DNA of 64,000 bases from Candidatus Dojkabacteria bacterium (lineage in GTDB: Bacteria > Patescibacteriota > Dojkabacteria > B142 > OLB20). The notes beneath the pieces were generated by a model that made no database searches, had not been told where the DNA came from, and saw only the letters and a list, made by a program, of their open reading frames with translations. Every line of letters begins with the position of its first letter. The first letter of the stretch is position 1. Below, one piece after another: positions 10,198 through 48,640 of this stretch. The stretch covers positions 8,013 to 72,012 of the forward strand of contig DAOMOX010000002.1 in the NCBI GenBank assembly GCA_035444565.1, read 5' to 3'. The translations under genes and the position numbers were made by a program.

Positions 10198-10671
10198 TTA
10201 TTTAGTTTTTAATTCTTTGATTGCTTGCTCGAAATCTTCAATGGTATTGAAATCTCGATAAACTGAAGCAAACAATAAGTATGCTATTGTGTCGAGCTTT
10301 TTTAATCTTGTTAATACCATCTGTCCGATTTCAGTACTTTTTACAATTGTTGTTTTACGATTGAGAAGTTTTAGTTCAATGTCATCAAGTAAGTCATCAA
10401 TTTGACTTTCTGTAAGATCGCGCTTCTTGACTGCCTTCATGATACCTTTTTTGAGTTTTTCTCGATCGAATTCTTCTACTTTCCCACTCCTTTTGTGAAC
10501 ATTTAAGCTGATTGTTTCCACACGCTCATATGTAGTAAAACGTTTCTTACAGTTCAAGCACTCTCTACGTCTCCTAGTTACACCGGATTCGTTATTGTCT
10601 CTCTTGTCGACAACTTTACTTACTACGCGATGACAGTACGGACAAATCATAATAAAATCATTATTGCGCAA
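10198..10671 (-). CDS. nrdR: Transcriptional repressor NrdR (the true start is probably the internal Met at nt 10650, MICPYCH...)
   Basis: Zinc ribbon CPYCH...CLNCKKRFTTYE and an ATP-cone (KRDLTESQIDDLLDDIE...LDTIAYLLFASVYRDF), collinear with bacterial NrdR. It lies directly upstream of nrdJ. Confidence 0.9.
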   Translation of the reverse strand: MRNNDFIMICPYCHRVVSKVVDKRDNNESGVTRRRRECLNCKKRFTTYERVETISLNVHKRSGKVEEFDREKLKKGIMKAVKKRDLTESQIDDLLDDIELKLLNRKTTIVKSTEIGQMVLTRLKKLDTIAYLLFASVYRDFNTIEDFEQAIKELKTK

Positions 10672-19590: not shown

Positions 19591-22500
19591 TTATTTTATA
19601 GAAGCGTACATTATTTCCAATATGTAATACTGTGCAGTAGTCTCTGTGATTTGTTTTGGTAAGTCCAATTTACCAAGTCTTGATCTTAATTTTATAGTTA
19701 TTTTATTTAAAAGTTGCTGATATTCATTATTAGTAAGTTGTGCAGTTATAATCTTTGCTGCATTTGAAATTGCTGTAATTGTATTCTTTCTGACAGTATC
19801 TGCATTCGGGTCTTGATTATTCATAATCTCATTAATAATTAAGTCTAGTTCTCGTTTTAAACCAGTCCTATCTGTTTGTAATTCATTTTTAATTACATTT
19901 CTCACTAAATCTAATATCTCTTCGTTTGGCAATGTTATTTCATTAGTTGTTAAATATGCTCGTAAATTTTCGGTATTGGAATCAGTATCAATTACAGTTT
20001 CGGTTCCCATGATGGGAAGAATAGGATTGTCGACGGGTAAATCTTCTACATCCTCAGCTTCTCTTCCCACAAGTTCTTTATCTTGAGGAGATGAGGCCAG
20101 TTCTATTAACCTTTTCTCCGCGTCTGTTCTATTCTCTTCAACTAAACTAACCTTCACCACCCAGCCTTCAATCCCTCCCAAATTTTCTTCCTCTACTCGT
20201 AATTGGTATTTCCCTTCGGCTACTCCCTCATTAATTCTATCTGCAATTTTTCTTGTGGTATCACCGTCTTCTGATACATCGATGAAATCATCGACAACCT
20301 CATTAGTAAGAGTTACATATCCCATCTTCACTAGATCAGGCATGCGGTTTGCCAGATCACCAGTATCATCTATTCTTTCAATTTTATTAGATTTGAAAAC
20401 AAATTTAGAATCATCGGTTTCATCAACTGTATATACCAACCGTCCTCTTATCAAATCCAGTACTATTTCTTCGTCAGAAATTTCTGAACCTACAACAGCA
20501 TTAATCTCTTCTCTTTTGTTTTTGATAATTTCGAGTAAATCAGTTTTTTCTACAAGCCATTTCTCTTCTGATCTCTCATCTGTTACAGGAGAAAAACGGA
20601 CTTCTCTTCGACCTGAAACTATCTCATCTTTAGCATTCTCATCAAGTTGACCTCCAACCAGTTCTACTAATTCACCCAGTCTTCTCATATTGTAGTGTAA
20701 TAGTGCTCTTTTAGTAGCTTCTGCATTTTGGAATGAAAGCTCTACAGAATCTCCACTTTCACTTGTTGATTCGGTCTCAGTAAAGGGTTCTTCCTTCATT
20801 ATAGTTTCGGCTTGTTCTACGGGAATCACCAATAATTCATTAAATTTCTCTGTTAATCTCTCCTTTCCGGCAACCTTCTCTCTATCCACTTTTAATTTGC
20901 CTTTTATTTGCATAACATCTTCCGTACTAGTATCAGCGTCTTTTATAATCAATCCGGCATATTCTAATAGTTCTAAGACCTCAGCTTCGGGAAGGTTTTC
21001 ATAATCTATATTCCCTGATTCGGAAGCATCATCACTTAACCACAAAGCAGTTCTTCTATTTATTTCATTCAATACTATTCTGGTAATATTATCTGAGCCT
21101 CTAGTATCTTTTTCAATATTTCTCAATGTGTAGAGTACATTGCTTGGAAGTCTTCTGCTGAATTCATTGGAAGTAAGTCCCATATCGGGATCGTTATATT
21201 TCCCGCGTATTTCAATATAGGTATCATACACAGTAGCTCCAGGAGTTATGTCTAGGATTGTGTATTCTGCGCCTTCACTTTCAACATCAACTGCTGCTTC
21301 CGATATTAAAGGTTCTGCGACAAGGTCATTTCTATCACTTTGGTCAACCTCGGCATCAACAACTACAAATTCCCAAGCACTAATCCCATCAGGCATTTCA
21401 GGGATAGTTCTAGTCTGTAATGTAACTTCGTTATTTATTATTTTTCTAACTAAGACTTCTACAAATTTTTCTCTGAAATCATCAGGATTACTATCGGGAT
21501 TTCTTTCTGATAGATCAGATATTACTGATTCGGGTATATCCGAGGATAAAACATCATTATTTATCACTGTTTGAAGCAAACCTTGCACGTCATTTTCATT
21601 TAGTTCATCGCTAAATAAATTTTTATAACCTGCCAAAAGAGAATTTACGTATTCATCTCTATTATCAAAAGTAGGATTTCCATCAATAGCATTACTATAT
21701 ATGTAACTTCTTGAAGCTAGTAATGCTTCTTGTTCTGGTTCTAAACTAATAATTTTACTAATATCTTTATCCCGTATCCGTATATCTCCATTTAAAATCC
21801 AGGCATCATAGCCACTATATTGACTGTAATAATATGCAACTTTGCTGTTTTCTCCTATTATAGGTTGATTTAATGCTAATTCTAACTGAGAACGTATATC
21901 ATCTTTTTCCTTATATTCCCTAAATTTATCTGAAACAATAAATGTTGAATCACCAAGAACAACATCTGTTAGATCTAATAATGGCTCTTCTTCTGGAGTA
22001 GAACTAAAATTCTCAACAAGGACGTACTCATATATTCCTAGTCCTTCTAAACCAGGTATTTCTCTGGTGGTGAAAGTGTAATAATCACCCACTCTATCTA
22101 TTTCTTCAATTATAGTCTGACCAACAATTCTTCGTAACTCGTTAAGGTCTGTGATTTTATTAATACCTTTCTTCAATTTTAAAGTTTCAATAATTCCTTG
22201 TGGTAGTTCCGGTGATAATAGTCTTCCTAATATTTCTGGAATTTCATTTGTATTTTTAACGTCATTCTCTATTCTTCTAAGAATGTCCTCTCTGTCAACA
22301 ACTTCGTTCTGAGATATGTCTTGTGTATCAAATGATATTGAATACCTAATGTTTCTGTCGTAACTACTCTCTCCACTTCCTAATAAGTTTCTCGAAAAAA
22401 GAGTTCTTATCTGACCACGATTAAGATCTAGTGATGAATTATCTTTATTTGATAAAACTACCTGTTCGGAAGGATAAAATATGTGCACGTACTGAGGTGT

Positions 22501-25500
22501 TTCAAGATATATTCTTTCATCAGATAATATAAGTGGTGACCCGAGTGCCCATGATACACGTTCGAACAAATCACTATTTATAATTGCGTTCTTAATCTCA
22601 TTGTGTTGATCTTCATTAATACCCAAACCTTCTCTAAATTCTTCATCTCTAATTTTCTCTTGTCTCCGTCTATAAAGTGCGAAACCCCCAAATGCTGCTG
22701 TTAGTATTCCGAGAGTGGCGACACTTCCTATGATAAGTGGTTTTTTCATATCTTCTGGTATACCAGCATCCTCCAACATTGCATCGGTATCGACACCTTC
22801 TCCTGGAACAGGTTCCAATGGAGCTGTCGTTGGTTCTGGGGTTACAAATGGTTCGATTTCGGAAGTTGCGGTTTCTTTAACCTCTTCTGTGGGTTCTGGT
22901 GTAGCTGTAAATGTTGTCTCAGCAGTAGGTGACTGCTCTGTGGGAATAGATGTTGCGGTAACTGAAGCAGTCTCCTCTGGGGTTGTTACTGTTGTTGCAG
23001 TTAATTCTTCTTGGGATTGTTTTGCCTCAGCAGTCGGAGCCTGTGTTGTGTTTGTAGCTGTAGTCTGAGCAGTTGCTGAAGGAGTGACAGATGCAGTGGT
23101 TACTTCAACACGTGATTCAGATCTTGGCAATTGGTTTTGACCTTCTACATTATCTTTAATAAAATCTTTTACTGATTGTGGCAAATCTAGAACTGAGTAA
23201 GTCCCTTTTGATATTTGATTACCGTTACTTGTCCCAGCTACACTATATACTACTACTTCATCACCATAATTACTTCCGTCTGGCTTCATCAGCTTTACAA
23301 CTACTTCAGGCGAAGGACTATTATCTCTATTTACTATAATAAAACTCTCTTCAGTAACTACAAAATCATCACCTTCTTTGTAAATTACCGAACCATACTG
23401 GTCTGAAATCCTAGGATCCTCTAATGATTCGAAATCAAAAGCTGCTGTTGCAGTTGGTGCTGAAATTGTTGCTGTAGCTGTTTGAGTTAAGGTTGGTTCT
23501 GCAGTTGAAATTGGTGTTGCTTCTGGTTCAGCAGTGCTAGTTGCAGTAGGTTCGGGGGTTGATGTTACGGGAGGTGTTCCCTGAACATCTGAGTCTGATA
23601 GATTATTAAAAGTGTTGATGGTCGCTTGATCTACTTGGATATCTAATTTAGGATTTTCGTCAGTATCTTTTATACCCAATAAGTTAAATATATTTATATT
23701 TTTTTCATTTAAAATTTCTTGAAGTCTATTCAACATTCTGGGGTTTGTATATATTGCTACTACTTCTTCATAGGATTGTACTGACGTACTTGTGATAGGA
23801 TTCTCATCACCTTCATCTGTAGTATATAATATTCTCTCACCAAGTAAACTTTGTATGGTGCTATGTAATGTCATTAGAGCCACTGCAGGATCATCAGTCT
23901 CAACTACAGTGCCCTCAAAATTAAGAACTCGAATCAGATAGCCACTATCTTCTAATCCATCCCATCTTCCTCCATTTTCTCGTTCAATTACATCAAGTAA
24001 TGCATGTTGGGTAAGTTCTGAAAACGGTGCTAATCTTCCTGTTCGGAACTGCTCAGGTATATCAGAGTCATATCTATCTTCAATTCCAAGTTCTTTAAGA
24101 GCTTCGTATAAATGCTCAAACTTATAATCACCTTCTGGGAATCTTTCTATCGCAGAAAGTATAAGCCCGTTGACTAATAATTGAGAAATTTCCTCTCTAA
24201 TTATATCCATTCCCTCACCTGCGATTGTTTGGCCATCATTTACATCCTCATTAAAGTTCTGGAAGATACTGATTGTGTGAAATTTAAAACCATCCTCTGT
24301 GTAATTCGGGGGAGTTGTGGCAACTGAGCTTCTTTGTTCAATTATTTCTCGGTACTCATCGCCGATTGAGAAATTAATATTATTTGGAACAAAATCCTGA
24401 TTTCCGTTTAGATGAATAGAGTAGCCCATTTTACTTGCTATTTGTTCAACAAGATCATAGCTCACATTAAATTTTGTTTGCTGACCATTAATAGTTAAGT
24501 TTATTTCAATAGGATTTTCCTTATCTAATCTCTGGAATTCTTTAGGTTCTGGAGGAAATTCCTCCATTAATTTTTGTGCTTCTGTGGGGGTTGCACTCGC
24601 ATCTACTGTCGGAGCAAGGGTAGGTTCTTCTTCAACCGGCTCGGGAGTTGATACATTTCTAGTCGCTTCAGCTACTCGATCAAATATTCCTTTTATCAAT
24701 TCAATGTAATCCCCTTCTGGAACATCTGGGAATGCAGTGATAAATTCTTCTCTTGTTAAACTCTCGAAATTTTTATCATCTACTCTCTGATAAGAATTGT
24801 TTTCATACTTTTCAATGACTACATATGCCTCACTACCTTCACTAGGTCTTACAGTTAGTCGATATTCGGGATCTATATCATTGTCTGTATTTAAATAGAC
24901 ATAAATTCCATTATCTCCCTTTCCACTTACTTCTTTCATCATCCATTGACCTTTTTGATCACTGCCATTACCCAATGAATCTCCACCTTCGAAATTATCG
25001 AGTATATTTTTTCTATATTCCTCTTCATCCACGAAGTTGATCTCGGCTTCTTGAGCTTCGATTGTTCCTTCCGGAACAGGAGTAGGTCCTTCGTCACCAG
25101 TCTCTGGAGTGGCTGTTATAGTTCCTTCCTCTACCGCAGGTTCACTCGTAGCTGTAGGTGTGGTACTAGGTGGTGGAGACGTTGGAGTTGGTTCCGTACT
25201 GTTTGTTGTATCTCCCGTAGGTTCAGGTGTCGGATTTGTTACGGTCTCGGCATTATCACCTGTCACTTGTAGACTATCTGGAAGGTACTCCGCAATCTTT
25301 TGATTAGCCAATTCAACCATATCTCCTACAGAACCTGGCCTTTCTTCCTCATTGATTCTAAATTCAAGAATTCTTGTATCGGGAGGGATATTGTCTCCAG
25401 AAATTATTTCATAGTCAGAATTTACAGCTGTACTAATAAACAGTTGACCTTCAACATCTATTAATGCAACACCTTGATTCTTGATTTGTGTAGCGACATC

Positions 25501-28500
25501 ATCGCCAATTTCATTTAATGTGACGTATTTATCATTTGATGTTAAGAATTCATCCAAATCGATTTTTCCTTCTTCTATCAGTTTATCTGCTAAAGCCTTT
25601 AATCCCTCAATATCTTCAGGAATATCACCCGCATCGATTCCGTAGAAATGAGGTCCCCCGTGAAGGCTTCCTGTTATTCTCCCCGAGGAATCAGCATTAA
25701 TTTCGAGCGTGTAGTATGTTCTCTGTTCCTCTACACCTTCATTATTTATTTCGTTAAATGTTTGAGACCTCAATGCAACACCATGTTCAATTAGTGACTC
25801 TTCTGCCAATTTGTTTGATTGAGCAACTTCTTCAGATGTTGAATTTTCAGATCCACCAAAAATCGGAATGTTTGTCGTAACTACATCAGACCCTACTGTG
25901 AATTCTGTGTCAGGTATCTCCACAGTTGGAGAAACGATATCTTCAGCAGAATCGCTTTCATCTTCTACTCCATCTTCAACTTGTTCGTCGACAGTTTCCT
26001 CTGTAGTAACTCCTTCTCCGGTTGATTCATCTTGAGCAATTGGTCCAACTGCCCTCAATCTCATGTCTATACCAATATCTTCTGTCAATTCCACTAAAGA
26101 AAGCTCACTTACAATACTTTGAGGTCCAGCCATAACTGTGAATTCCGTTTGTTCTCCTATTACTGATCTGGTTTGATTGGAGCTTGTAGTTACTATTACG
26201 AATTCTCGTTCCTCTCCATCAACCTGAAGAGTGATAATAGGTAGTTCCCCTTCGTCTAATTCATTTAAGTAAGTTTGTATTTCTGATTGTAATGTTTGAG
26301 GCAAATCTGACAGACTTGTTGGTGCTGTTGTCTGAGTACCTGAAGTTCCTAACGTTGTAGAGTTGTCAACAACAGTAGACATTGAGACTGGTGAAATGTT
26401 TGTTCCAGAAATCGGCTCAAGTTCAGGTACGGTATCAGCGTCTATTGTGCGACCAAGAGTTATATCCACGGATGCTTGAGCATCTTTATAAATTTCATCG
26501 ATATGTTCTTGAGTCATCTTCCCATCTGAGAGATCTTCAGTTTGTTCAGCACTAAGCTCGACTAGGAAAATACGATTATGCGTACCAAGATTTGAATCAC
26601 CCGGAATAGTAACCAATACAAATTTGTTTTCTACAAAAGTAGCGTTTTCTCCCTCCTGTTCTACAACATTTAATATTCTAATACCTGAACCTGCTCCAGA
26701 ATCATTCAAAATTTCACCATCAACAACTCCGTTTAAAGATATAGAATATCCGCTATTTAAAACACCGGGTATAGAATCTTCTACTAAATTACCACCCTCA
26801 TTAATTATATATGGAGTTAAATCTTTGATATTACTTTCGGAGATGACGAGTTCAGAGAGCATACTATGTGGTTTCAAGACTAGTACATCTTGAGGATTTG
26901 GGTACCCAGAATTGTTATAGAATCTCTCGACCTGAGTTTCATCGCGGCTAATGGAGGCTACATCAAAATCTTCATTAGGTGAATTATGAGTATATACAAT
27001 ATTACCCAACATTGTTGTAAATGTCTGTGGCTCTCCAATTATGAGCTGAACACTTTGACCCGTACTACTTGGTAGGGTTAGTAACCCATCATTAATAAGC
27101 TCTTTTAGCTGATCCCCTGTTAGAGCTGATTGATAATGATTTAAGACATCATTCCATGTACTGAATGTAATTGAATTATTTGAGCTTAAGATATTATCTG
27201 TTGCATCTGCGACTGCATTGATTTGTTCATTAGTTAGACCTATCTCTTGTAACTGCTCAATACCCTCAGGAGATGGCATTTGATTGAGGATTTCATCTAC
27301 ATCTAAAGTTACTGGTGTATTTGAGGGAAACCTTGATAATTCAATTTCTTGTGTAAGTAAACCATCTTGAACAACCTTTTGTCCATTTTCTTCGGTGATA
27401 TCTGATTCATTTATCAGTCTCCACTGGTTATTCTCAAGAACAACCAATCCATATACAATACTACCCTCAGCTGTTGTATTATCCCCATCGATATCTACTT
27501 TTAAACTTAGCGTTCCATAAGGCAAACCATCTGTTTCATTGAAATATCCTTCAGATGGAATTTCTCCTGTAATAACTCTTCCTGTTTCAGGTAAGTTATC
27601 AAAAGGGAACGCTGTTTCACCATTTGATAAAACGACACTAGTTCCAATTTCATCTACATTTTCAATCTGAGTTTTAAAGTTATCACTATTAACTATATTA
27701 TGTAGTTCTGTTTTTAATTCATCAACGGGTCTTCCAATCCATTCATCACCTTCTAAAAATTGCGATGCATAAATAATATTGTCAGGAGCATTTCTCAAAT
27801 CTCCATCATATATAGCATTCTCTCCGTCGACATCAGGAACGACAGCATAGACAACCTGTACGACAAATTCATCCTGCGATGTTCGCATTGTTCTTATGAA
27901 CAAATCATCATCAGATGGCAATCTTTCTAAGTCTATATCGCTTACAAATAAATCTATCACTTTTGCGTGTTCAGAAGTACCTAAAATGACAGGTGAATGA
28001 TCTACATGATTATTTAATTCGTCAGGAACTGGGGCAAATATATTATCAACAACTTGATAGAATAGGATATCTTTTTCCAGATTTGCTCCCGCGATAGGGG
28101 TGTCATCAATTTTCCCACCAACTAATAATAAATCGTTTTCTTGATATTGGCTATGATTGACGTCACTAGGAATATAATTTGTTCGTACATTTAGTTCTCC
28201 TGTATCTGTTAAGCTATATGATCGCGCTGCAATAGTAATACTCTCTTCTTCTGGATGATTATTTAACCAATCCTTTACATCTCCATAAGTCCATCCAGCA
28301 TATTTGGATACTTCGCTCAGTCTATGTTCTAACTCTTCTTCTGGATTTTCTGTGTCAAGTACATTTATATCTCCAACAATTTGTTCAACTTGTTTATATA
28401 CAATTTCGGGCTCCACATCATGATCCACATCAAATCCAAAAGCAAGGCTTCCAGCATGTGTAGTTGCCGATTCAGGTGATTCCAGTTTATAAGTACCCGT

Positions 28501-30771
28501 AGCAGGGTCAAAGTGCAAAGCTCCGTAATATGTCTCAGAACCATCAGGATTCTCAACGACAGCCACTCCTCCATTTAACGGTTCGTTTAGCTCTGCTACT
28601 ACACCATCTTCACCCCAGATTTCGTGACCTTCTCTTACTACCTCAGCGACTGCCTCCCCAATACCATTTCCAGGTGTAACTTCTCCGATGCCGACGGATT
28701 GACTGTCACTGCCAGCTGGTTCATAAAGAACTTGATCAAGTATGGCAGATGTGGGTTGTTCGAAGACAGCTGCCATCTGAACTGCTATAGATGCATCTAT
28801 TCCAAATTCTTCGTGAAGTAATTTTTGTATATTACCTTCATGTTTATCAATCATCTCTGGTGTGATGCCATCTAAGAGATTGATTTGATCATCTGTAAGG
28901 GTTCTTATGGTATCCACATTTACTATTTGTCGTTCGTGTAATTCAGTTCGCTCCTCAGAGTCTGCACCCTGTATATTATGCAAAGCTTTTTGTATATCAT
29001 CAATTTTATTGCTTAACTCAACCTGTTCCAATTCGCTGATTGGCTTTTGCCAATGTTCGACGGATGAATCCACATGCTCAGCGGGTGGAGCTTCTTCTAT
29101 CACCCTACTACCTGTAGTTTCTGGTGTTTGATTATCAATATTGTTTTCTAGAGAAGTCTCCGTTAATACTGCTTCATCAGTTTGTTTAGAATCTTCTCGA
29201 TATACCATTTGCTCCACACCACCATTGTCAGCTCTATGGAATTCACCTTTCTCAACAGCATCAGCCATTGCTTGATACCTTTCGTAATCATTATGGCTAT
29301 CGACCTTATCTTGTGCAATTCTTGCTAAACTCTCCAAAGCGTCTTCGCGAACTTGAGATGGTGGTGTTTGAAGATGGTCAGCCTGGTCGACAACATCATT
29401 AGTCTCGTTTGAATCCATCCCATAACCGGAAGTTGCTGCTAGATATTCATCGAAAAAGTCATCTGAATCATTATCTCTTAAATCGTATAATTCTCCTGAT
29501 ACTACGGCTCCTGCTGGCATAAATATACTTGCCACAACTCCAGTAAGCCTGAGGGTATTTAGTGATAATTGAATTACCTTTCTTTGCTTTGGGGTCAATC
29601 TATCTAATAATCCTGCATCTGGCTCTTTATTACTAAGTAGAATTTCTGCAATTCCTTCATCCTCAAAACCTCGCACTTCTAGTATTGACGCCTGTTCAGG
29701 ATTGAGTTTCCCTTGCGAAATAAGCTCTTGTTCTTGTTGGTATTTATTCTGTAGTAATCTCCTAGCTAAAAATTCCAATTCAGTCAATGTGAGGTTTGTT
29801 CCATTATCTGCGTTGATTTGATCCAAAGCAGCTTTAGCAATTTTCTTTGTACCAGAATCAAATCCCATATTAGCGAATCTATATGCCATCTCAACTGACA
29901 TGTTCACACCTTGATCATTGGTCCAAATTACTGTACTTTCTGCTGAATGAGTAGGTAAATATGTCTTACTCTGAAGATTTTTATAACCTTTTGCCACTGT
30001 TTCGATAGAAGTAATTGAAGGTGCTGTTATATCAGTAATGTCTTCTCTTTTCTTAAGTGCGATCGTCGTAATTTCGTCAATACTCGTATTTGGGTTTAAC
30101 ACGTGTTCTGTAGTAATTAATTTGGATGCTAATTCTGATTCGTGAAGTAGTGCTACAAGCTCTCTCGGTAGGACTTTATTTAATTTGCCGTCCGTTGTGA
30201 GATTAACATATTTACTTAATACATCATTTAAACTTGCAAGGGATGCTCCATAATTTTCACCTAAAACATCAATTGACTCGCCTAAATACCTCTGAATAGT
30301 CTCAAAAACTATAAGCTGCCCATCTGCACTTAGATTTCCTTCTTTACTAAATAACTCCTTGTCACTGATTTCTAGTTCATTTAGTAGTCTATCTAGATAA
30401 TAAGCAAATGCTGCATCTTCAGTTTCAGATGTTGTATCTAATTCTGGAAGAATTTCATATATTTTATCTGCTCTCTGCACAATAGACAGAGAAGATGTCA
30501 CCTCCTTCCTTTTGGTTTTACCACCTCCTAATATTTTGAGACCTCCGATTTTAACGACTTCTGTTCTGGTATATCTCTCTCCTAACAAAACGTTATTCCG
30601 GAATTCCACGTCTGGCTTATAATCACCACTATCTAACAATAGAGGATTTTCCGTTCTGTTACCTAACAAATCTTGTGCTGCCATTGTTGCAAATACTTCT
30701 GTCATAACTCGCACATCAGGCGGGATATTTGTTGGTTTAGTGACTTCTACCACTGATCTCTCAATTCCCAT
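19591..30771 (-). CDS. Giant (3726 aa) bitopic membrane protein: N-terminal region of about 2600 aa with Thr/Pro-rich low-complexity stalks, one TM helix with an RRRQEK stop-transfer, and an acidic C-terminal domain of about 1100 aa
   Basis: Single hydrophobic segment PLIIGSVATLGILTAAFGGFALYRRRQEK (aa about 2600), preceded by a PT/TA-rich stalk (…TPEPTTAPLEPVPGEG…). Additional PT tracts sit at aa about 1390 and about 2240. No recognisable catalytic motifs and no N-terminal signal peptide. The intact 11.2-kb ORF is co-directional and contiguous with the MutS-like ATPase gene. Confidence 0.6.
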   Translation of the reverse strand: MGIERSVVEVTKPTNIPPDVRVMTEVFATMAAQDLLGNRTENPLLLDSGDYKPDVEFRNNVLLGERYTRTEVVKIGGLKILGGGKTKRKEVTSSLSIVQRADKIYEILPELDTTSETEDAAFAYYLDRLLNELEISDKELFSKEGNLSADGQLIVFETIQRYLGESIDVLGENYGASLASLNDVLSKYVNLTTDGKLNKVLPRELVALLHESELASKLITTEHVLNPNTSIDEITTIALKKREDITDITAPSITSIETVAKGYKNLQSKTYLPTHSAESTVIWTNDQGVNMSVEMAYRFANMGFDSGTKKIAKAALDQINADNGTNLTLTELEFLARRLLQNKYQQEQELISQGKLNPEQASILEVRGFEDEGIAEILLSNKEPDAGLLDRLTPKQRKVIQLSLNTLRLTGVVASIFMPAGAVVSGELYDLRDNDSDDFFDEYLAATSGYGMDSNETNDVVDQADHLQTPPSQVREDALESLARIAQDKVDSHNDYERYQAMADAVEKGEFHRADNGGVEQMVYREDSKQTDEAVLTETSLENNIDNQTPETTGSRVIEEAPPAEHVDSSVEHWQKPISELEQVELSNKIDDIQKALHNIQGADSEERTELHERQIVNVDTIRTLTDDQINLLDGITPEMIDKHEGNIQKLLHEEFGIDASIAVQMAAVFEQPTSAILDQVLYEPAGSDSQSVGIGEVTPGNGIGEAVAEVVREGHEIWGEDGVVAELNEPLNGGVAVVENPDGSETYYGALHFDPATGTYKLESPESATTHAGSLAFGFDVDHDVEPEIVYKQVEQIVGDINVLDTENPEEELEHRLSEVSKYAGWTYGDVKDWLNNHPEEESITIAARSYSLTDTGELNVRTNYIPSDVNHSQYQENDLLLVGGKIDDTPIAGANLEKDILFYQVVDNIFAPVPDELNNHVDHSPVILGTSEHAKVIDLFVSDIDLERLPSDDDLFIRTMRTSQDEFVVQVVYAVVPDVDGENAIYDGDLRNAPDNIIYASQFLEGDEWIGRPVDELKTELHNIVNSDNFKTQIENVDEIGTSVVLSNGETAFPFDNLPETGRVITGEIPSEGYFNETDGLPYGTLSLKVDIDGDNTTAEGSIVYGLVVLENNQWRLINESDITEENGQKVVQDGLLTQEIELSRFPSNTPVTLDVDEILNQMPSPEGIEQLQEIGLTNEQINAVADATDNILSSNNSITFSTWNDVLNHYQSALTGDQLKELINDGLLTLPSSTGQSVQLIIGEPQTFTTMLGNIVYTHNSPNEDFDVASISRDETQVERFYNNSGYPNPQDVLVLKPHSMLSELVISESNIKDLTPYIINEGGNLVEDSIPGVLNSGYSISLNGVVDGEILNDSGAGSGIRILNVVEQEGENATFVENKFVLVTIPGDSNLGTHNRIFLVELSAEQTEDLSDGKMTQEHIDEIYKDAQASVDITLGRTIDADTVPELEPISGTNISPVSMSTVVDNSTTLGTSGTQTTAPTSLSDLPQTLQSEIQTYLNELDEGELPIITLQVDGEEREFVIVTTSSNQTRSVIGEQTEFTVMAGPQSIVSELSLVELTEDIGIDMRLRAVGPIAQDESTGEGVTTEETVDEQVEDGVEDESDSAEDIVSPTVEIPDTEFTVGSDVVTTNIPIFGGSENSTSEEVAQSNKLAEESLIEHGVALRSQTFNEINNEGVEEQRTYYTLEINADSSGRITGSLHGGPHFYGIDAGDIPEDIEGLKALADKLIEEGKIDLDEFLTSNDKYVTLNEIGDDVATQIKNQGVALIDVEGQLFISTAVNSDYEIISGDNIPPDTRILEFRINEEERPGSVGDMVELANQKIAEYLPDSLQVTGDNAETVTNPTPEPTGDTTNSTEPTPTSPPPSTTPTATSEPAVEEGTITATPETGDEGPTPVPEGTIEAQEAEINFVDEEEYRKNILDNFEGGDSLGNGSDQKGQWMMKEVSGKGDNGIYVYLNTDNDIDPEYRLTVRPSEGSEAYVVIEKYENNSYQRVDDKNFESLTREEFITAFPDVPEGDYIELIKGIFDRVAEATRNVSTPEPVEEEPTLAPTVDASATPTEAQKLMEEFPPEPKEFQRLDKENPIEINLTINGQQTKFNVSYDLVEQIASKMGYSIHLNGNQDFVPNNINFSIGDEYREIIEQRSSVATTPPNYTEDGFKFHTISIFQNFNEDVNDGQTIAGEGMDIIREEISQLLVNGLILSAIERFPEGDYKFEHLYEALKELGIEDRYDSDIPEQFRTGRLAPFSELTQHALLDVIERENGGRWDGLEDSGYLIRVLNFEGTVVETDDPAVALMTLHSTIQSLLGERILYTTDEGDENPITSTSVQSYEEVVAIYTNPRMLNRLQEILNEKNINIFNLLGIKDTDENPKLDIQVDQATINTFNNLSDSDVQGTPPVTSTPEPTATSTAEPEATPISTAEPTLTQTATATISAPTATAAFDFESLEDPRISDQYGSVIYKEGDDFVVTEESFIIVNRDNSPSPEVVVKLMKPDGSNYGDEVVVYSVAGTSNGNQISKGTYSVLDLPQSVKDFIKDNVEGQNQLPRSESRVEVTTASVTPSATAQTTATNTTQAPTAEAKQSQEELTATTVTTPEETASVTATSIPTEQSPTAETTFTATPEPTEEVKETATSEIEPFVTPEPTTAPLEPVPGEGVDTDAMLEDAGIPEDMKKPLIIGSVATLGILTAAFGGFALYRRRQEKIRDEEFREGLGINEDQHNEIKNAIINSDLFERVSWALGSPLILSDERIYLETPQYVHIFYPSEQVVLSNKDNSSLDLNRGQIRTLFSRNLLGSGESSYDRNIRYSISFDTQDISQNEVVDREDILRRIENDVKNTNEIPEILGRLLSPELPQGIIETLKLKKGINKITDLNELRRIVGQTIIEEIDRVGDYYTFTTREIPGLEGLGIYEYVLVENFSSTPEEEPLLDLTDVVLGDSTFIVSDKFREYKEKDDIRSQLELALNQPIIGENSKVAYYYSQYSGYDAWILNGDIRIRDKDISKIISLEPEQEALLASRSYIYSNAIDGNPTFDNRDEYVNSLLAGYKNLFSDELNENDVQGLLQTVINNDVLSSDIPESVISDLSERNPDSNPDDFREKFVEVLVRKIINNEVTLQTRTIPEMPDGISAWEFVVVDAEVDQSDRNDLVAEPLISEAAVDVESEGAEYTILDITPGATVYDTYIEIRGKYNDPDMGLTSNEFSRRLPSNVLYTLRNIEKDTRGSDNITRIVLNEINRRTALWLSDDASESGNIDYENLPEAEVLELLEYAGLIIKDADTSTEDVMQIKGKLKVDREKVAGKERLTEKFNELLVIPVEQAETIMKEEPFTETESTSESGDSVELSFQNAEATKRALLHYNMRRLGELVELVGGQLDENAKDEIVSGRREVRFSPVTDERSEEKWLVEKTDLLEIIKNKREEINAVVGSEISDEEIVLDLIRGRLVYTVDETDDSKFVFKSNKIERIDDTGDLANRMPDLVKMGYVTLTNEVVDDFIDVSEDGDTTRKIADRINEGVAEGKYQLRVEEENLGGIEGWVVKVSLVEENRTDAEKRLIELASSPQDKELVGREAEDVEDLPVDNPILPIMGTETVIDTDSNTENLRAYLTTNEITLPNEEILDLVRNVIKNELQTDRTGLKRELDLIINEIMNNQDPNADTVRKNTITAISNAAKIITAQLTNNEYQQLLNKITIKLRSRLGKLDLPKQITETTAQYYILEIMYASIK

Positions 30772-44908: not shown

Positions 44909-45445
44909 ATGGGAGCTAAAGATAGACTAGGGTTAAATCTTGCAGAAGGTACTCAACTAGACCATAATACACCAGGCAAATCTCTTGCTAGGTGGGCAAT
45001 TGGTCATGTAGCCATTCCTGCTCTTCCAATCGTATCGTTAATGATTAAAGACATGGCGGTTCCAATGGAAACAGTTACGGGACTTGAAGGCTTTGCACGG
45101 AATGCGGGTACTATTGCTCTCATATCAATTGCTGGTGATGTTTTAGGCAGACGAGGAGCACTTCCCTTAGGAGTCGCAATAGCTGCTACAGCTGGTGCTG
45201 TAGGAATTTCTGGAGAATTCGACATATCTTCATTATTTCGACAAGATTCGTTCCCATTGTCAGTGAATGATGGATTAAATGAAGCACTAATTCTATCCAC
45301 CTATTTTTTAACAGGTATAAATTCGTACATAGCAAAAAATCGTGGAGATGTTATGGTTACATATACAATCGCGAAAATCCTTAAAGGTGCGGTAGACTTA
45401 ACAGCACGTATGCTTAATTCTTCATCTAACAGAAATGATAATTAA
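44909..45445 (+). CDS. Gly/Ala-rich small membrane protein (178 aa), first of a tandem set in a GC-elevated islet
   Basis: Hydrophobic Gly/Ala-rich segments (GTIALISIAGDVLG, LGVAIAATAGAVGISG) in an intact ORF with locally elevated GC. Confidence 0.35.
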   Translation: MGAKDRLGLNLAEGTQLDHNTPGKSLARWAIGHVAIPALPIVSLMIKDMAVPMETVTGLEGFARNAGTIALISIAGDVLGRRGALPLGVAIAATAGAVGISGEFDISSLFRQDSFPLSVNDGLNEALILSTYFLTGINSYIAKNRGDVMVTYTIAKILKGAVDLTARMLNSSSNRNDN

Positions 45446-45767
45446 CACTTTAGAATCAGGAGGTATGTATCTTGCAGGTGTATTAGCAGGGTCAGCTGTA
45501 GTAAACTTAATGGACATCAATTTTGAGCCTAAAACTATTGCTTATGGAGCAATAGGTTCAGCTCTAACATGGGGACTTGGATTCATTTTGAACAAATGGA
45601 AGTGTACACCTCTCGAAGATGATACAGCACTGATGGAACTTGCAAATGAAGCTGTACAGAGAGCAATAAATCCACGAAACCTACCTAGAGCTCTATACAC
45701 AGCTGCTGGAATGCTCGCATCTCCAGCATGGATAGCCCTAGTTCAAGCTGGTAGAAACGTGATCTAA
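45435..45767 (+). CDS. Gly-rich small membrane protein (110 aa), paralog of the 45864-46178 ORF
   Basis: Shares the motif AYGAIGSALTWGLGFI with AYGLMGSLPAWLFGKVI of the next ORF. GxxxG-type helices. Confidence 0.35.
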   Translation: MIINTLESGGMYLAGVLAGSAVVNLMDINFEPKTIAYGAIGSALTWGLGFILNKWKCTPLEDDTALMELANEAVQRAINPRNLPRALYTAAGMLASPAWIALVQAGRNVI

Positions 45768-45863
45768 TAAAGATGTTATACGTGAAATTATTAGTAATTA
45801 TAATGCAATCTTTTGCATTTAAATTAGTAAAGATAGTAAAATCTCCCAGTTATAAAAAATATA

Positions 45864-46178
45864 ATGCCAGGAGAATTTCTTACTGGAGCAGCTTACGGAC
45901 TCATGGGTAGTTTACCAGCGTGGTTATTTGGCAAAGTAATCCCGAGTGTAGAAACCGATGTCGTTTTCTCTGATAACGCTATCAAAGGTTTACCATTTTT
46001 AATTGTTGGTGGATGGATTGTTGGGAATTTAGCAAATCTCATGTTTAATGCTGGAAAGCCTGATGTAACACCAGTTCTAGATGTACAATTTCAAGGTGGT
46101 ATGATTTTGGGTTCCGCTTTAGGTTCTTTTGCTATTAGAACTTACGAAAGATATAAAAATCGACGGTTCCTAAAATGA
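45864..46178 (+). CDS. Gly-rich small membrane protein (104 aa), paralog of the 45435-45767 ORF
   Basis: TGAAYGLMGSLPAWLFGKVI and LIVGGWIVGNLANLMFNAG hydrophobic Gly-rich helices. Confidence 0.35.
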   Translation: MPGEFLTGAAYGLMGSLPAWLFGKVIPSVETDVVFSDNAIKGLPFLIVGGWIVGNLANLMFNAGKPDVTPVLDVQFQGGMILGSALGSFAIRTYERYKNRRFLK

Positions 46179-46251
46179 TTTTTAAACGCAAATCTTGATA
46201 ATACTTTTAGAATTCTCATATTATGCCCCATGTCTTAAAACCAAACATAAT

Positions 46252-46518
46252 TCAAACACTTTGTTGAAAGATATAACTACTTCCCAATCCAAGGAGAACA
46301 GAACTGATAATTTTTACTCTTTTGGGAATAGGTCTTCCAGCTATTGATTCTGGCAGACTTAATAAAGCGTACGTAAGAATAGATCCAAAACCAAACCCAA
46401 TAATAGCCATACCGGCAGTCGATTGCAATACACTCTCGAAAACATTATTTGGGGGTACTTCAGACGATGATTCCCTAAAATCTGGTGGAAATAAACTCAT
46501 ATTGTAAACGTACTTCAA
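46252..46518 (-). CDS. Small membrane protein (88 aa), hypothetical
   Basis: Two hydrophobic helices (MAIIGFGFGSILTYALLSL; IISSVLLGLGSSYIF) in an intact ORF. Confidence 0.3.
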   Translation of the reverse strand: MKYVYNMSLFPPDFRESSSEVPPNNVFESVLQSTAGMAIIGFGFGSILTYALLSLPESIAGRPIPKRVKIISSVLLGLGSSYIFQQSV

Positions 46519-46586: not shown

Positions 46587-48383
46587 CTAGTTTATCCAGG
46601 AAATCTCCTCCGTAATTTTACTTAGCAAAGCGTCTGTTCCCACAGTAATCGACTCCTCCCTCGTTCCGCAATTGAAATTACTACTTGTCTGCTCTTTCAC
46701 AGATTCTGAGTAATATGTTTTCAGGCCCATTAGAAAGCCAAACGGAGGTACTCCACCAACTTCTACGCCATATTTTTCTTTAATAACCTCAGGTTTTTCA
46801 AATTCAAATGCTTCCCCTTCTAATTCTCGTAACTTCTCCATATTTATCTTCTCAGTTGCTGGTACACAAACCATGATATTCTTACCGGATTTTTTACCTT
46901 TCAGAATGAGCGCTTTTAGGCCTTCTTCGAGTTTAGTGCCCCTTATTTCTGCTGCTTCTTCAGATGTTTTTACTGGAGCATGTTTTTGATACTCATATTT
47001 CACACCTGCATCATCGAATAGGCTTTTAATCTTCTGAACCAACTGTGAGCCTGGAACAATTTTCCTCTTTATGCTCACAGATGCAATTCTCTTTGTATCA
47101 GAGGGGAATAATGTAGCCTCTCGAATATTATCCAAACCAAGCAACAACATAGTTAACCGCTCCATTCCCATTCCAAAACCACCGTGTTTAGGCATTCCAA
47201 ATTTGAAAATGGCTAAGTAGTCACGGAAATCATCAGGATTAAGACCTTTCAATCTTAAAGATTCCTCCATCATGTCATGTTCATGGATTCTTTGACCTCC
47301 ACTGACAATTTCAGCCTCTCTACAAAGTAAGTCGAAATAATTGGTGACTTCTGGATTTTCTTCGTTTGGGTGAGCATAGAAAGCTGTCTTTTTCCTCAAA
47401 AAATGAGTTACATAGATAAAGTCAGTTCCAAATTCTTCTCGGGCATATTTACAAAGCTCTCTCTCAGCTTCAGGTGATAAGTCAATCTCTTGTCTTTCGT
47501 CATTTCCAGTTCTTTTGTAATAGAGTTCAAGTGCCTCCCTGAAAGTAATCCTAGGGAAAGAAACACTCTCTGGAGCCAGAGCTGATTCAACTCCAAGTGT
47601 TTTCAATTCTCTAGCGTTTTTCTCATTTACACTTTTAACAATAAACTTCACAGTATTCTCAAGCATATCCATAACGTCTTCAAATCCATCTATGAATCCC
47701 ATTTCAAATTCAAACTGAGTGGCTTCTGTAAGATGTCTCCTCGTTGCGGACTTTTCCGCTCTAAAGCACTTCATCAAGGCAAATACTCTTTCATAAACAC
47801 CTACCATCATTTGCTTGTACAATTGAGCACTTTGAGATAATTTTGCTTCTTGATCGAAATAATTAACAGTAAAAAGCTCAGTTCCTCCTTCTGAGGATGC
47901 ACTAATCACATTTGGACCAAAGAATTCGGTAAATCCTTCGCTAGTTAAATATTCACGATATGCAGCGACAATAGTTGCTTGAATTTTGAAAACTGCAGAG
48001 ATTTTTTGGTTTCTAAGGGTTAGTGGTCGATAGTCTAAAATTGTGTCCATCTCTGCATTCAATTCAGGTTTATTGTATTCTACTGGCAATGGAGTCGTTA
48101 CAGGAATCTCAACTATAACTTGAGGACTTATAATTTCAACGCCAAGTTCAGCTTGTTTGGCTTCTTGGACTTTACCAGTTACAGTAATAATTGAACCAGG
48201 TTGTAGATTTTTAACCTTTTCAATCTCGTTTTTATCCTCCATTACTACCTGAACCATACCTCCCCTGTCACGAATCACCATAAAACTTATTTTCCCAAGC
48301 ACACGAACTGCATTCATCCAACCTTTTATCATCACCTCTTCTCCAATATGATCTGTAAGTTTGTTTGAAATTGATCTTTGCAT
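46587..48383 (-). CDS. aspS: Aspartyl-tRNA synthetase (archaeal/eukaryal-type class IIb core) fused to a C-terminal YbaK/ProX-family aminoacyl-tRNA deacylase domain
   Basis: N-terminal OB anticodon-binding domain. Motif 2 FRAEKSATRRHLTEATQFEFEMGF. Motif 3 GGFGMGMERL. The core ends at about aa 440. The C-terminal 160 aa are collinear with E. coli YbaK (…KNIMVCVPATEKINMEKLRE…, YGVEVGGVPPFG versus YLVGGISPLG, NCGTREESITVGTDALLSKI versus [20 protein letters not shown]). Confidence 0.8.
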   Translation of the reverse strand: MQRSISNKLTDHIGEEVMIKGWMNAVRVLGKISFMVIRDRGGMVQVVMEDKNEIEKVKNLQPGSIITVTGKVQEAKQAELGVEIISPQVIVEIPVTTPLPVEYNKPELNAEMDTILDYRPLTLRNQKISAVFKIQATIVAAYREYLTSEGFTEFFGPNVISASSEGGTELFTVNYFDQEAKLSQSAQLYKQMMVGVYERVFALMKCFRAEKSATRRHLTEATQFEFEMGFIDGFEDVMDMLENTVKFIVKSVNEKNARELKTLGVESALAPESVSFPRITFREALELYYKRTGNDERQEIDLSPEAERELCKYAREEFGTDFIYVTHFLRKKTAFYAHPNEENPEVTNYFDLLCREAEIVSGGQRIHEHDMMEESLRLKGLNPDDFRDYLAIFKFGMPKHGGFGMGMERLTMLLLGLDNIREATLFPSDTKRIASVSIKRKIVPGSQLVQKIKSLFDDAGVKYEYQKHAPVKTSEEAAEIRGTKLEEGLKALILKGKKSGKNIMVCVPATEKINMEKLRELEGEAFEFEKPEVIKEKYGVEVGGVPPFGFLMGLKTYYSESVKEQTSSNFNCGTREESITVGTDALLSKITEEISWIN

Positions 48384-48640
48384 AAAATTGATTTAAAAAA
48401 TAAAAAAGACCCTAAACTACACGTGTAGTCCAAGGGCCTATAAAAGACGGTGCCACCTTGATTCATCCTCTGAGCGAGAGGATCTCAGTGTTGTATTAAT
48501 TTGTTGTCACTTTTACTTTTCGACTCTCAAAAAATATCGAATTCCTGTAATTATGATATTACTTTATTTCTGACCTGAAGACAAGAGTTATGAGTGGCCA
48601 CTTGCTTGATCACCTGCAGCTATGTTTTCTAAAGCATCTG
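48384..48640 (-). promoter_or_regulatory. Candidate T-box riboswitch leader of aspS, with a UGGC bulge matching the tRNA-Asp discriminator G and an overlapping terminator
   Basis: The minus-strand leader reads CCUCUcgcucAGAGG (stem III-like), then AAUCAAGGUGGCACCGUC (consensus AAUUAGGGUGGNACCGCG), then GGCCCUUGGACUACACGUGUAGUUUAGGGUC plus UUUUUUAUUUUUU ending 14 nt before the aspS AUG. A GACA candidate specifier lies further upstream. Confidence 0.5.

Follow-up and report, generated by a model that had tools for sequence, protein, structure and literature searches.

We report here that the analysed stretch of Candidatus Dojkabacteria DNA (64 kb; hereafter the window) carries a gene in which a short archaeal-type aspartyl-tRNA synthetase (AspRS) is fused to a predicted aminoacyl-tRNA deacylase domain of the INS superfamily (YbaK/ProX fold). 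The open reading frame, aspS-edit, is complete (46587..48383, minus strand) and specifies 598 aa plus a stop codon. In its product, an 11-aa linker joins the AspRS (aa 1-433) to a C-terminal editing domain matching Pfam PF04073 (aa 445-598). We propose that this is a bifunctional enzyme, in which a non-discriminating AspRS is combined with a tethered deacylase that proofreads tRNA-Asp and tRNA-Asn; the activity, targeting and substrate of the deacylase are what we infer, and we give the proposal about an even chance of being correct. No paper describing a fusion of AspRS to a YbaK/ProX-type domain was found in the open-access literature, and the arrangement apparently has not been described before.

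The initial annotation had recognised the fusion and had raised the concern that two genes might have been joined by a sequencing error around nt 47060-47100. Profile matches confirmed that the fusion is genuine, with PF00152 and NF003483 recognising the short archaeal-type AspRS and PF04073 the C-terminal INS/YbaK-superfamily domain. Reading of the minus strand revealed no stop codon within the 598-aa frame, and an identical protein is present in NCBI (HRN86573.1/HRP51228.1), where it is named 'aspartate--tRNA(Asn) ligase [Candidatus Dojkabacteria bacterium]'. When the same fusion was sought in relatives, at least 119 of the top 120 clusters of homologues (52-97% identity) proved to carry it, and so did 78 of the 80 highest-ranking loci of species-representative genomes, whose contigs were scanned with a narrow domain alignment as the query. 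The carriers among these 80 loci were Dojkabacteria and other Patescibacteria, many Chlamydiota, Legionellaceae, Bdellovibrionales and Verrucomicrobia. Complete genomes with the fusion include CP129470.1 (Ca. Dojkabacteria cMAG.26) and, from Parachlamydiales, OY969899.1 and CP058704.1. Because this continuous architecture recurs in independent clusters and genomes, the feared joining error is excluded. More generally, the view that the gene is an artefact of assembly or sequencing, or that the domain is a decaying remnant, is one to which we attach almost no probability: the frame is unbroken, more than 100 independent clusters and 78 species genomes have one and the same architecture, the catalytic residues are invariant, and the AF2 model is confident. 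The full-length model had a pLDDT of 88.6, with confidence lowest around the linker (64-77 for aa 430-450). The linker itself is short (ASVSIKRKIVP, aa 434-444; 47052..47084, minus strand), and among the stretches compared, the one that includes it (aa 434-467) was the least conserved (0.51).

Pfam analysis of the AspRS body identified an OB-fold anticodon-binding domain (aa 17-84; 48132..48335, minus strand; PF01336, E 3.8e-14) and a class IIb catalytic core (aa 112-433; 47085..48050, minus strand; PF00152, tRNA-synt_2, match aa 112-429, E 1.8e-79). Class II motifs 2 and 3 are present along with the OB domain. The motif 2 core reads FRAE (aa 207-210; 47754..47765, minus strand) and motif 3 reads GFGMGMERL (aa 402-410; 47154..47180, minus strand); R208, A209 and E210 in the former and G402, F403, G406 and R409 in the latter are invariant among 63 fused homologues. 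The core ends at aa 433, and solved archaeal-type AspRS chains stop at the aligned residue. Among NCBIfam models, aa 1-433 scored 501.8 bits against NF003483, aspartate--tRNA(Asn) ligase (cut-off 353), and 405.3 bits against TIGR00458 (cut-off 368.4). The best PDB match of the body is 1n9w/3kfu, the non-discriminating AspRS2 of T. thermophilus (E 1.3e-99, aa 7-432). Further inspection revealed that N24 and E79 align to W26 and K85 of T. kodakarensis AspRS, which we take to be the anticodon-discriminating residues of that enzyme. Among the 63 fused homologues, 54 have N or H at position 24 and none has W, and the absence of the discriminating residues is suggestive of a non-discriminating AspRS. 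A non-discriminating role had been raised from the outset, and the fit to NF003483 and the relationship to T. thermophilus AspRS2 are in line with it; the AspRS body is most likely non-discriminating, that is, it would charge both tRNA-Asp and tRNA-Asn. Genes for AsnRS, GatCAB and an INS-less ProRS were looked for, and none lies within the 64-kb window.

We also noted a candidate compact T-box leader upstream of aspS (48429..48571, minus strand; Rfam RF00230). It scored 26.9 bits against RF00230 (E 5.6e-4), which is under the gathering score of 93, and the RF00230 alignment indicates that it lacks much of Stem I and of Stems II/IIA-B. The T-box core, AAGGUGGCACCG (48459..48448, minus strand), is invariant in 11 leaders, and 10 further Patescibacteria loci keep the core motif together with GA[C/U] ahead of their fused aspS. 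Three pairs of the Stem I distal helix show compensatory changes; apart from this helix, RNAalifold, run on a MAFFT alignment of the leaders, returned only a helix of 3 bp within the invariant core. An intrinsic-terminator hairpin with an 11-bp stem follows (48410..48435, minus strand) and leads into the U-run UCUUUUUUAU. The CCCUU strand serves both this terminator and the T-box antiterminator, which puts the two in competition. The leader displays several traits of a T-box, namely, the conserved sequence with its UGGN bulge, terminator/antiterminator competition and a specifier matched to the gene. That specifier is GAC, for Asp (48508..48506, minus strand), and a housekeeping AspRS is therefore indicated. 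Expression of aspS would thus be controlled by a leader that senses uncharged tRNA-Asp. A two-codon Asp/Asn T-box (GAC-AAC in the window) was also considered and was rejected, because AAC is not conserved beyond the two closest relatives.

The C-terminal domain (46590..47051, minus strand) passed the profile search for the YbaK superfamily. PF04073 (tRNA_edit) matched aa 468-587 with 84.4 bits against a gathering score of 25.5 (E 8.4e-24), spanning 121 of the 123 profile positions. An AF2 model of the domain alone had a pLDDT of 90.7, and all 37 of its 37 Foldseek matches in the PDB at E<=1e-3, led by 3op6, were INS-superfamily chains (TM 0.61-0.81). The hallmarks of this superfamily are a catalytic Lys and a GXXXP motif (PMC11286415). 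The equivalent of the catalytic Lys is K490 (codon at 46914..46916, minus strand), which aligns with the Lys of 2cx5, 1wdv and 5vxb; it is conserved in 100% of 139 fused and 137 free-standing relatives, which settles in the affirmative whether the fused domain has kept this residue. The loop VEVGGVPPFG pointed out in the initial annotation is present at aa 540-549 and contains the GXXXP motif (G543-G-V-P-P547; 46743..46757, minus strand), with G543, P546 and P547 invariant. A third conserved element is the clade motif F570-N571-x-G573 (46665..46676, minus strand). In a set of 120 fused proteins, conservation reaches at least 98% at K490, G543, P546/P547 and F570/N571/G573, all of which the free-standing relatives have as well. 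Mean column conservation, measured as the frequency of the commonest residue, is similar in the editing domain (0.66) and the OB domain (0.61). Judged from its sequence, the editing domain is predicted to be catalytically competent, with hydrolysis as its presumed activity.

Comparison of fused with free-standing relatives showed that the substrate-pocket residues are identical in the two groups, and no Asp-specific or tRNA-Asp-specific adaptation was found in the sequence. What is specific to the fused proteins is a set of acidic residues (E524, E527 and E529) and a basic loop (K497 and N502). This loop and the acidic patch, together with the short linker, would suit a module that does not hydrolyse anything and instead holds the acceptor end for tRNA affinity, or passes Asp-tRNA-Asn to GatCAB. 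The YqeY-type domain appended to Deinococcus GlnRS is a comparable case, and appended tRNA-binding domains on indirect-pathway synthetases have a precedent (PMC1865053). We nevertheless regard a purely binding role as quite improbable, since the catalytic Lys, the GXXXP motif and the pocket residues are as strictly conserved as in the free-standing deacylase relatives, which is the pattern of an active enzyme.

In order to place the domain within the superfamily, a profile of its clade was scored against reference proteins. E. coli YeaK (ProXp-ST1) scored highest, with 102.8 bits, followed by 3op6 (87 bits), E. coli YbaK (55.6 bits), ProXp-x (45.5 bits), ProXp-ala of C. crescentus (5vxb; 28.1 bits) and the INS domain of ProRS (20 bits). 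In a pairwise comparison, the editing domain and YeaK were 29% identical (E 2e-16); an NJ tree without bootstrap placed YeaK in another part than the fused domains. On these comparisons, the nearest characterised relative of the editing domain is E. coli YeaK/ProXp-ST1. Its closest relatives overall are free-standing proteins of 160 aa, and free-standing forms made up about 137 of the 185 domains analysed. The proteins are small and soluble-looking and are ready for assay. Approximately 1,200 clusters (at 50% identity) match the editing domain at E <= 0.001, relatives of characterised families included.

The initial annotation had typed the domain as YbaK/ProX, acting perhaps in trans for a ProRS. 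Assignment to YbaK proper did not hold, as the domain fell below the curated equivalog cut-offs (40.4 bits against 153.25 for TIGR00011 and 12.7 against 243 for NF007951). ProXp-ala was likewise tried and rejected on its clade-profile score and on the PDB match to 5vxb (E 6e-4). These results bear on the idea that mischarged tRNA-Pro (Ala- or Cys-tRNA-Pro) is what the domain clears in trans, offsetting a ProRS that lacks INS. Membership in the YbaK/ProX superfamily speaks for this idea, as does the name 'Ala-tRNA(Pro) deacylase' that JGI has given to some free-standing relatives. Set against it are the failure of the YbaK equivalog models, the position of ProXp-ala among the most distant references and the identity of the fusion partner, which among the best 150 representative clusters was AspRS in every aaRS fusion; no fusion of the clade domain to ProRS was found in these clusters. 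We consider action on tRNA-Pro very improbable.

Further evidence on this point comes from the range of synthetases that carry the domain. One domain clade occurs on three AspRS backbones: the archaeal type, the bacterial type with a GAD domain and the bacterial type without it. Fusions with a bacterial backbone (P0156, L017 and L028) share only 27-29% identity with the window protein in the core and 47-52% in the domain; for chlamydial archaeal-type fusions, the values are 55-57% in the core and 43% in the domain. The editing domain has evidently moved between AspRS backbones, as far as these sequence identities can tell, and their incongruence indicates that it is the association of AspRS with the domain that is being kept. 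Fusion of one clade to three AspRS backbones, with incongruent identities, argues for an AspRS-linked function rather than trans-editing for ProRS, and the domain is therefore unlikely to serve ProRS in trans.

The same observations must be weighed against a more general form of trans-editing, in which a broad, ProXp-ST1-like deacylase clears, e.g., Ser- or Thr-mischarged tRNAs made by other synthetases, and AspRS contributes only coexpression, stability or a nonspecific affinity for tRNA. Such a role is consistent with the identity of the pocket residues in fused and free-standing relatives and with the fact that free-standing forms are far commoner, and ProXp-ST1, the nearest characterised family, has broad tRNA specificity and takes many tRNAs as substrates (PMC11295145). 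With an irrelevant partner, however, one would anticipate fusions to other aaRSs, and among the best 150 clusters all were to AspRS, on three backbones, with the domain retained or transferred from one to another. On balance, we find general trans-editing doubtful, though it deserves to be kept in mind.

A different possibility is that the domain safeguards the indirect route to asparagine by hydrolysing Asp-tRNA-Asn, which a non-discriminating AspRS makes by deliberate mischarging, whenever GatCAB has not converted it, sparing Asn codons from Asp. The AspRS core is compatible with this, in that it matches non-discriminating profiles, has AspRS2 of the transamidosome as its closest solved relative and carries N or H in place of the discriminating Trp. 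The fusion also occurs in Chlamydiota and Patescibacteria, and Chlamydia relies on GatCAB. Transamidosomes have also been likened to editing systems (PMC3367201). A tethered hydrolase of Asp-tRNA-Asn would, however, enter a futile cycle with its own synthetase. Moreover, no fused-specific basic residue hints that an acidic side chain is bound, E524, E527 and E529 themselves being acidic; the T-box specifier is for Asp and not Asn, with the adjacent AAC unconserved; and the fused loci show no linkage to gatCAB. We therefore judge this role to be unlikely.

Gene neighbourhoods were searched more widely, and no conserved gatCAB, tRNA-Asn or tRNA-Asp genes were found near the fused gene. In the fused loci of Chlamydiota, pnp and rpsO were the only recurring neighbours, and the few tRNAs near fused loci look incidental. 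No aspS was found beside the closest free-standing relatives (P0155 and P0162), whose neighbourhoods are unrelated. The neighbours of the fused gene are thus uninformative as to its function.

The reading that we prefer is proofreading linked to AspRS itself. The AspRS body would hold or recapture tRNA-Asp and tRNA-Asn through the OB anticodon-binding domain and acceptor contacts and would thereby lend its tRNA specificity to the tethered deacylase. By means of Lys490, which is invariant, and the GXXXP loop, the deacylase would then hydrolyse the wrongly attached aminoacyl group. By analogy with ProXp-ST1, its substrate would probably be a small polar or nonprotein amino acid. On this reading, post-transfer proofreading would extend to an eighth family of synthetases, that of AspRS. 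The fusion may not confine the target to tRNA-Asp and tRNA-Asn, because ProXp-ST1 is broad with respect to tRNA (PMC11295145).

AspRS is not regarded as a synthetase in need of editing; the fusion suggests that it is nonetheless proofread in the lineages that carry this gene architecture. An open-access literature search, whose terms did not themselves include misacylation by AspRS, returned no paper on a need for editing by AspRS. To our knowledge, no misacylation by AspRS that requires editing has been established. A bolder version of proofreading holds that AspRS truly needs a post-transfer step, in which the deacylase either polices Asp-tRNA-Asn that escapes GatCAB or removes an unrecognised amino acid (e.g., a host-derived analogue or D-Asp) from tRNA-Asp and tRNA-Asn; we advance this version tentatively and do not expect it to be the likelier outcome. 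Were its first form true, the domain would serve the indirect asparagine pathway as an inbuilt safety valve. Textbooks and current reviews recognise seven synthetase families with editing domains (PMC11295145); if the bolder version is right, AspRS would be the eighth, and translation would have a new fidelity problem. The presence of a conserved deacylase domain with intact catalytic residues on three AspRS scaffolds, which are spread over Patescibacteria, environmental Chlamydiota, Legionellaceae, Bdellovibrionales and Verrucomicrobia, implies an undescribed fidelity problem at Asp or Asn codons or, alternatively, a new point of control in the tRNA-dependent formation of asparagine. The INS superfamily has a large branch that is uncharacterised, and the fusion gives direct experimental access to the function of this branch while itself suggesting the tRNA partner.

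Several known systems can be compared with the window protein. T. thermophilus AspRS2 (1n9w and 3kfu; transamidosome) aligns with the body end to end over aa 7-432 and matches the same NCBIfam equivalog, but it stops where the linker of the window protein starts and has no editing domain. The AspRS-GatC bifunctional protein (NF009460) is also a natural C-terminal addition to AspRS with a function in the tRNA-Asn pathway; there, the appended module is an amidotransferase subunit and not a deacylase. NF009460 was among the models matched by the fused proteins, with the window protein scoring 107.7 bits, far below the cut-off of 1379.

Among the deacylases, ProXp-ST1 (YeaK), which acts on Ser- and Thr-tRNA, shares with the window domain H468, R481, G-x-K490, the G..PPF loop, FNxG and S578. 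Unlike the fused AspRS, YeaK is a single-domain protein, and it has K-C-E-A-V where the fused clade has T473-S474-E-E-A. Sequence and fold comparisons alike give lpg1207 of Legionella pneumophila (3op6) as the best solved match of the domain, with E 2.2e-11 in the former and a Foldseek E of 6.8e-12 (TM 0.73-0.78) in the latter; it is an uncharacterised, free-standing protein with only 25-28% identity to the window domain. YbaK, the Cys-tRNA-Pro deacylase, has the fold, the Lys and the GXXXP loop in common with the window domain. It works with ProRS, however, and the E. coli protein has S and D where the window domain has N571 and S578; the window domain also scores far under the curated YbaK cut-offs.

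According to reviews, members of the YbaK/ProX family other than INS are single-domain proteins, with the exception of ProXp-ala, which occurs as a ProRS fusion in some protists and has an extra C-terminal domain in plants (PMC11295145). Fusion to ProRS improved deacylation by ProXp-ala in the case of T. brucei ProRS (PMC11286415). INS-bearing ProRS and the protist ProXp-ala-ProRS embody the same principle as the window protein, that of a class II synthetase joined to an INS-superfamily deacylase. They differ from it in the synthetase, which is ProRS in those fusions and AspRS (class IIb) here; in the place of the domain, which is inserted in the case of ProRS INS, N-terminal in the case of protist ProXp-ala and C-terminal here; and in the domain itself, which here belongs to another branch of the INS superfamily than ProRS INS or ProXp-ala.

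The fused aspS gene (46587..48383, minus strand) forms one continuous 598-aa ORF. Pfam analysis revealed that its product comprises an OB anticodon-binding domain (aa 17-84), a class II D/K/N catalytic core (aa 112-429; E = 1.8e-79) and an aminoacyl-tRNA editing domain, PF04073 (aa 468-587; 84.4 bits versus a cut-off of 25.5). Residues 1-433 matched the NCBIfam equivalog "aspartate--tRNA(Asn) ligase" (NF003483; 501.8 bits versus 353) and TIGR00458 (405.3 bits versus a cut-off of 368.4). All of the motifs reported in the initial annotation were located, namely, class II motif 2 (FRAE, aa 207), motif 3 (GFGMGMERL, aa 402) and the loop of the C-terminal domain (GGVPP, aa 543). The synthetase part stops at aa 433, the exact end point of the solved archaeal-type AspRS chains, and is tethered to the editing domain by 11 residues (aa 434-444) of low model confidence and low conservation. 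An identical protein is present in GenBank (HRN86573.1/HRP51228.1, [quoted passage not shown]).

The possibility had been raised that two genes were joined by a sequencing error at nt 47060-47100. We searched 5.8 billion clustered proteins and took the best 120 clusters (52-97% identity); at least 119 of these have the same three Pfam domains at a length of ~595-605 aa, and the odd one out is a 474-aa fragment. We also scanned one genome per GTDB species, which gave 335 relatives of the domain; 78 of the 80 best loci have AspRS sequence upstream of it within the same ORF. Since this architecture recurs in both homologue clusters and species genomes, a join error is excluded, the likelihood that the fusion arose as an artefact is negligible, and the AspRS-deacylase fusion is computationally solid. 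Carriers in the species scan were Ca. Dojkabacteria and other Patescibacteria, many Chlamydiota (including Parachlamydiaceae, Rhabdochlamydiaceae and isolate HS-T3), Legionellaceae and another gammaproteobacterium, Bdellovibrionales, a "delta proteobacterium" and Verrucomicrobia. Many of these lineages are host associated or predatory. The patchy distribution, together with a core identity between phyla of ~55%, suggests horizontal transfer. In environmental Chlamydiota loci (L023-L085), the fused gene adjoins pnp (polynucleotide phosphorylase) in 17 cases and rpsO in 13; several of the MAGs concerned are recorded as "Chlamydia trachomatis," which looks like a mislabel.

The Pfam score and structural comparisons place the C-terminal domain in the INS/YbaK superfamily, as had been proposed. 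AlphaFold2 gave confident models of both the full-length protein (pLDDT 88.6, pTM 0.74) and the domain by itself (pLDDT 90.7), and a Foldseek search of the PDB gave 37 significant matches, all of them INS-superfamily chains, including 3op6, 1wdv, ProXp-ala (1vjf/5vxb), ProXp-x (2cx5), YbaK (1dbu/2dxa), ProX (8huz) and ProRS INS. Two multidomain matches, 9qzk (SadB) and 3mem (a putative signal-transduction protein), we take to carry the INS fold. The more specific label of YbaK type did not hold, with both curated YbaK models far below cut-off (TIGR00011, 40 versus 153 bits; NF007951, 12.7 versus 243 bits). When reference proteins (of which YeaK, 2cx5, 5vxb and 1dbu represent their families according to PMC11295145 and PMC11286415) were scored with a profile of the domain plus free-standing relatives, Escherichia coli YeaK (ProXp-ST1, a Ser/Thr-tRNA deacylase) ranked highest at 102.8 bits, followed by a 3op6 fragment (87), E. 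coli YbaK (55.6), ProXp-x 2cx5 (45.5), 1wdv (43.4), ProXp-ala 5vxb (28.1) and E. coli ProRS INS (20.3). BLASTP against YeaK gave 29% identity (E = 2e-16). The clade may be ProXp-ST2 or one of the uncharacterised ProXp-7/8/9 rather than ProXp-ST1 proper.

An exhaustive HMMER search of 1.84 billion representative proteins returned 1,211 clusters (E <= 1e-3), the majority of them free-standing proteins of 150-170 aa. The nearest free-standing relatives, P0155 (45% identity) and P0162, are genuine single genes with unrelated gene contexts. H468, T473, S474, R481, G488, K490, the GGVPPFG loop, F570-N571-x-G573 and S578 occur in fused and free-standing members alike, so the two groups probably have the same chemistry and pocket. 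The fused proteins additionally have an acidic motif, G523-E524..E527-x-E529-x-P531, and a basic loop, K497/N502. Other architectures also were seen among the relatives: P0186, P0231 and P0306 (448-491 aa) are each made up of three PF04073 domains in tandem and fall near Legionella lpg1207/3op6 in the tree, and P0268 (286 aa) has the odd combination of a defence-type domain, GmrSD_N (DUF262-type restriction endonuclease N-terminal), with the tRNA deacylase fold PF04073.

Fusions or fusion fragments accounted for 17 of the best 150 representative clusters, and in all 17 the partner is AspRS. Three scaffolds were found: the archaeal type of the window protein (~600 aa); a bacterial type with the GAD insertion (~745 aa; e.g., P0184, P0249 and L038 from Ca. 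Nomurabacteria; NF001750, 706-815 bits); and a bacterial type without GAD (~626 aa; e.g., P0156, P0176, L017 and L028; NF001750, 549-560 bits, split over two stretches). Members of the third group are above the NF001750 cut-off though they have the C-terminal editing domain and no GAD insertion; L017, a Dojkabacteria genome locus, has its ORF end near 4432. The core and domain histories are discordant. P0156, L017 and L028 share 27-29% identity with the window protein in the core and 47-52% in the domain, whereas archaeal-type chlamydial fusions share 55-57% in the core and only 43% in the domain. Given this disagreement, either the domain passed from one AspRS gene to another or the synthetase body was swapped with the fusion retained; under either history, selection acts on the AspRS-deacylase association. 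That association is the strongest argument against an arbitrary piggy-back fusion and against the proposal that the domain serves ProRS in trans, which we regard as highly improbable. A generic, broad-specificity trans-editing factor appears rather unlikely.

The best solved relative of the core is Thermus thermophilus AspRS2 (1n9w; 3kfu in the transamidosome), which aligns end to end (E = 1.3e-99) and is a non-discriminating enzyme. W26 and K85, the anticodon-discriminating residues of the discriminating Thermococcus kodakarensis enzyme, correspond to N24 and E79 in the window protein; of 63 fused homologues, 54 have N or H at position 24 and none has W. These features support, rather than prove, the suggestion that this AspRS is non-discriminating. 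No AsnRS, GatCAB or ProRS genes were found within the 64-kb window. Surveillance of untransamidated Asp-tRNA-Asn by the domain is a doubtful alternative.

Directly upstream of aspS lies a compact T-box leader (48410..48571, minus strand, including its terminator), with the terminator hairpin 27 nt from the start codon. The Rfam T-box match (48571..48429, minus strand; 26.9 bits, E = 5.6e-4) is below the gathering score of 93, as the leader lacks much of Stem I and Stems II/IIA-B. The T-box core AAGGUGGCACCG is invariant 75-200 nt upstream of the fused gene in the window and ten other Patescibacteria loci (L006-L009, L011-L013, L019, L022 and L038), that is, in Dojkabacteria and one Nomurabacteria genome with a bacterial-type fusion; it is absent upstream of the fused gene in Chlamydiota and other phyla. 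The specifier region keeps [G/A]U-GA[C/U]: ten loci have GAC, and L011 has the other Asp codon, GAU. In the window an AAC comes right after GAC; it was considered as a second specifier and rejected, as it is not kept beyond the two closest relatives. Compensatory changes occur at 3 of 5 pairs of the Stem I distal helix, the UGGC bulge is consistent with a G73 discriminator, and CCCUU forms both the antiterminator 3' strand and the terminator 5' strand, which thus compete. As a reduced T-box whose specifier is Asp, the leader argues that the fused enzyme is the housekeeping AspRS, responding to tRNA-Asp charging. No relevant paper on T-boxes in CPR/Patescibacteria was among the top literature matches.

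All INS-superfamily deacylases that have been characterised use two hallmarks, a catalytic lysine and a GXXXP loop (PMC11286415). In the fused domain, K490 is aligned to the lysine of the K-[STN]-L motif in solved ProX and ProXp-ala proteins, and G488, K490, G543, P546, P547, F570, N571 and G573 are at least 98% conserved in 120 fused proteins, so the catalytic lysine sought in the fused domain is kept. As a measure of conservation, the commonest residue has a mean column frequency in these proteins of 0.66 for the editing domain, comparable to 0.61 for the OB domain. A non-catalytic tRNA-binding or hand-off module seems very unlikely. We favour, at about an even balance, a model in which the AspRS body would bind tRNA-Asp/Asn and the tethered deacylase would hydrolyse a non-cognate aminoacyl ester there through K490 and the GXXXP loop. 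Hydrolysis would most likely follow tRNA release and recapture, a route suggested for class II ProRS fusions (PMC11286415). If ProXp-ST1 is a guide, the hydrolysed ester may carry a small polar or non-protein amino acid.

The G+C content of the window (32-39%) and its genes fit an origin from a Dojkabacteria (WS6, Patescibacteria) MAG. Between mraZ and aspS (44909..46518) is a cluster of small, Gly/Ala-rich and membrane-like ORFs that had no Pfam match, namely, three plus-strand ORFs of 178, 110 and 104 aa and a minus-strand ORF of 88 aa; the 110-aa ORF recurs in this position in the nearest relatives, e.g., L006. A 1434-aa ORF (2733..7037, minus strand) with two ribonucleotide reductase (RNR) all-alpha domains, two barrel domains and one TSCPD looks like a tandem duplication or fusion of RNR and is next to a third RNR (592 aa) and NrdR (8402..10180 and 10198..10671, both minus strand). 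Two adjacent giant ORFs (19591..30771, 3726 aa, and 15297..19541, 1414 aa, both minus strand) had no Pfam match at E <= 1e-4.

We found no description of AspRS fused to an INS-superfamily domain in the open-access full-text literature; the fused proteins are public in databases, named only as AspRS. Synthetases with editing domains are well known, and INS-superfamily domains are inserted in bacterial ProRS and fused N-terminally to protist ProRS. In all, editing domains occur in seven synthetase families (2024 review, PMC11295145).
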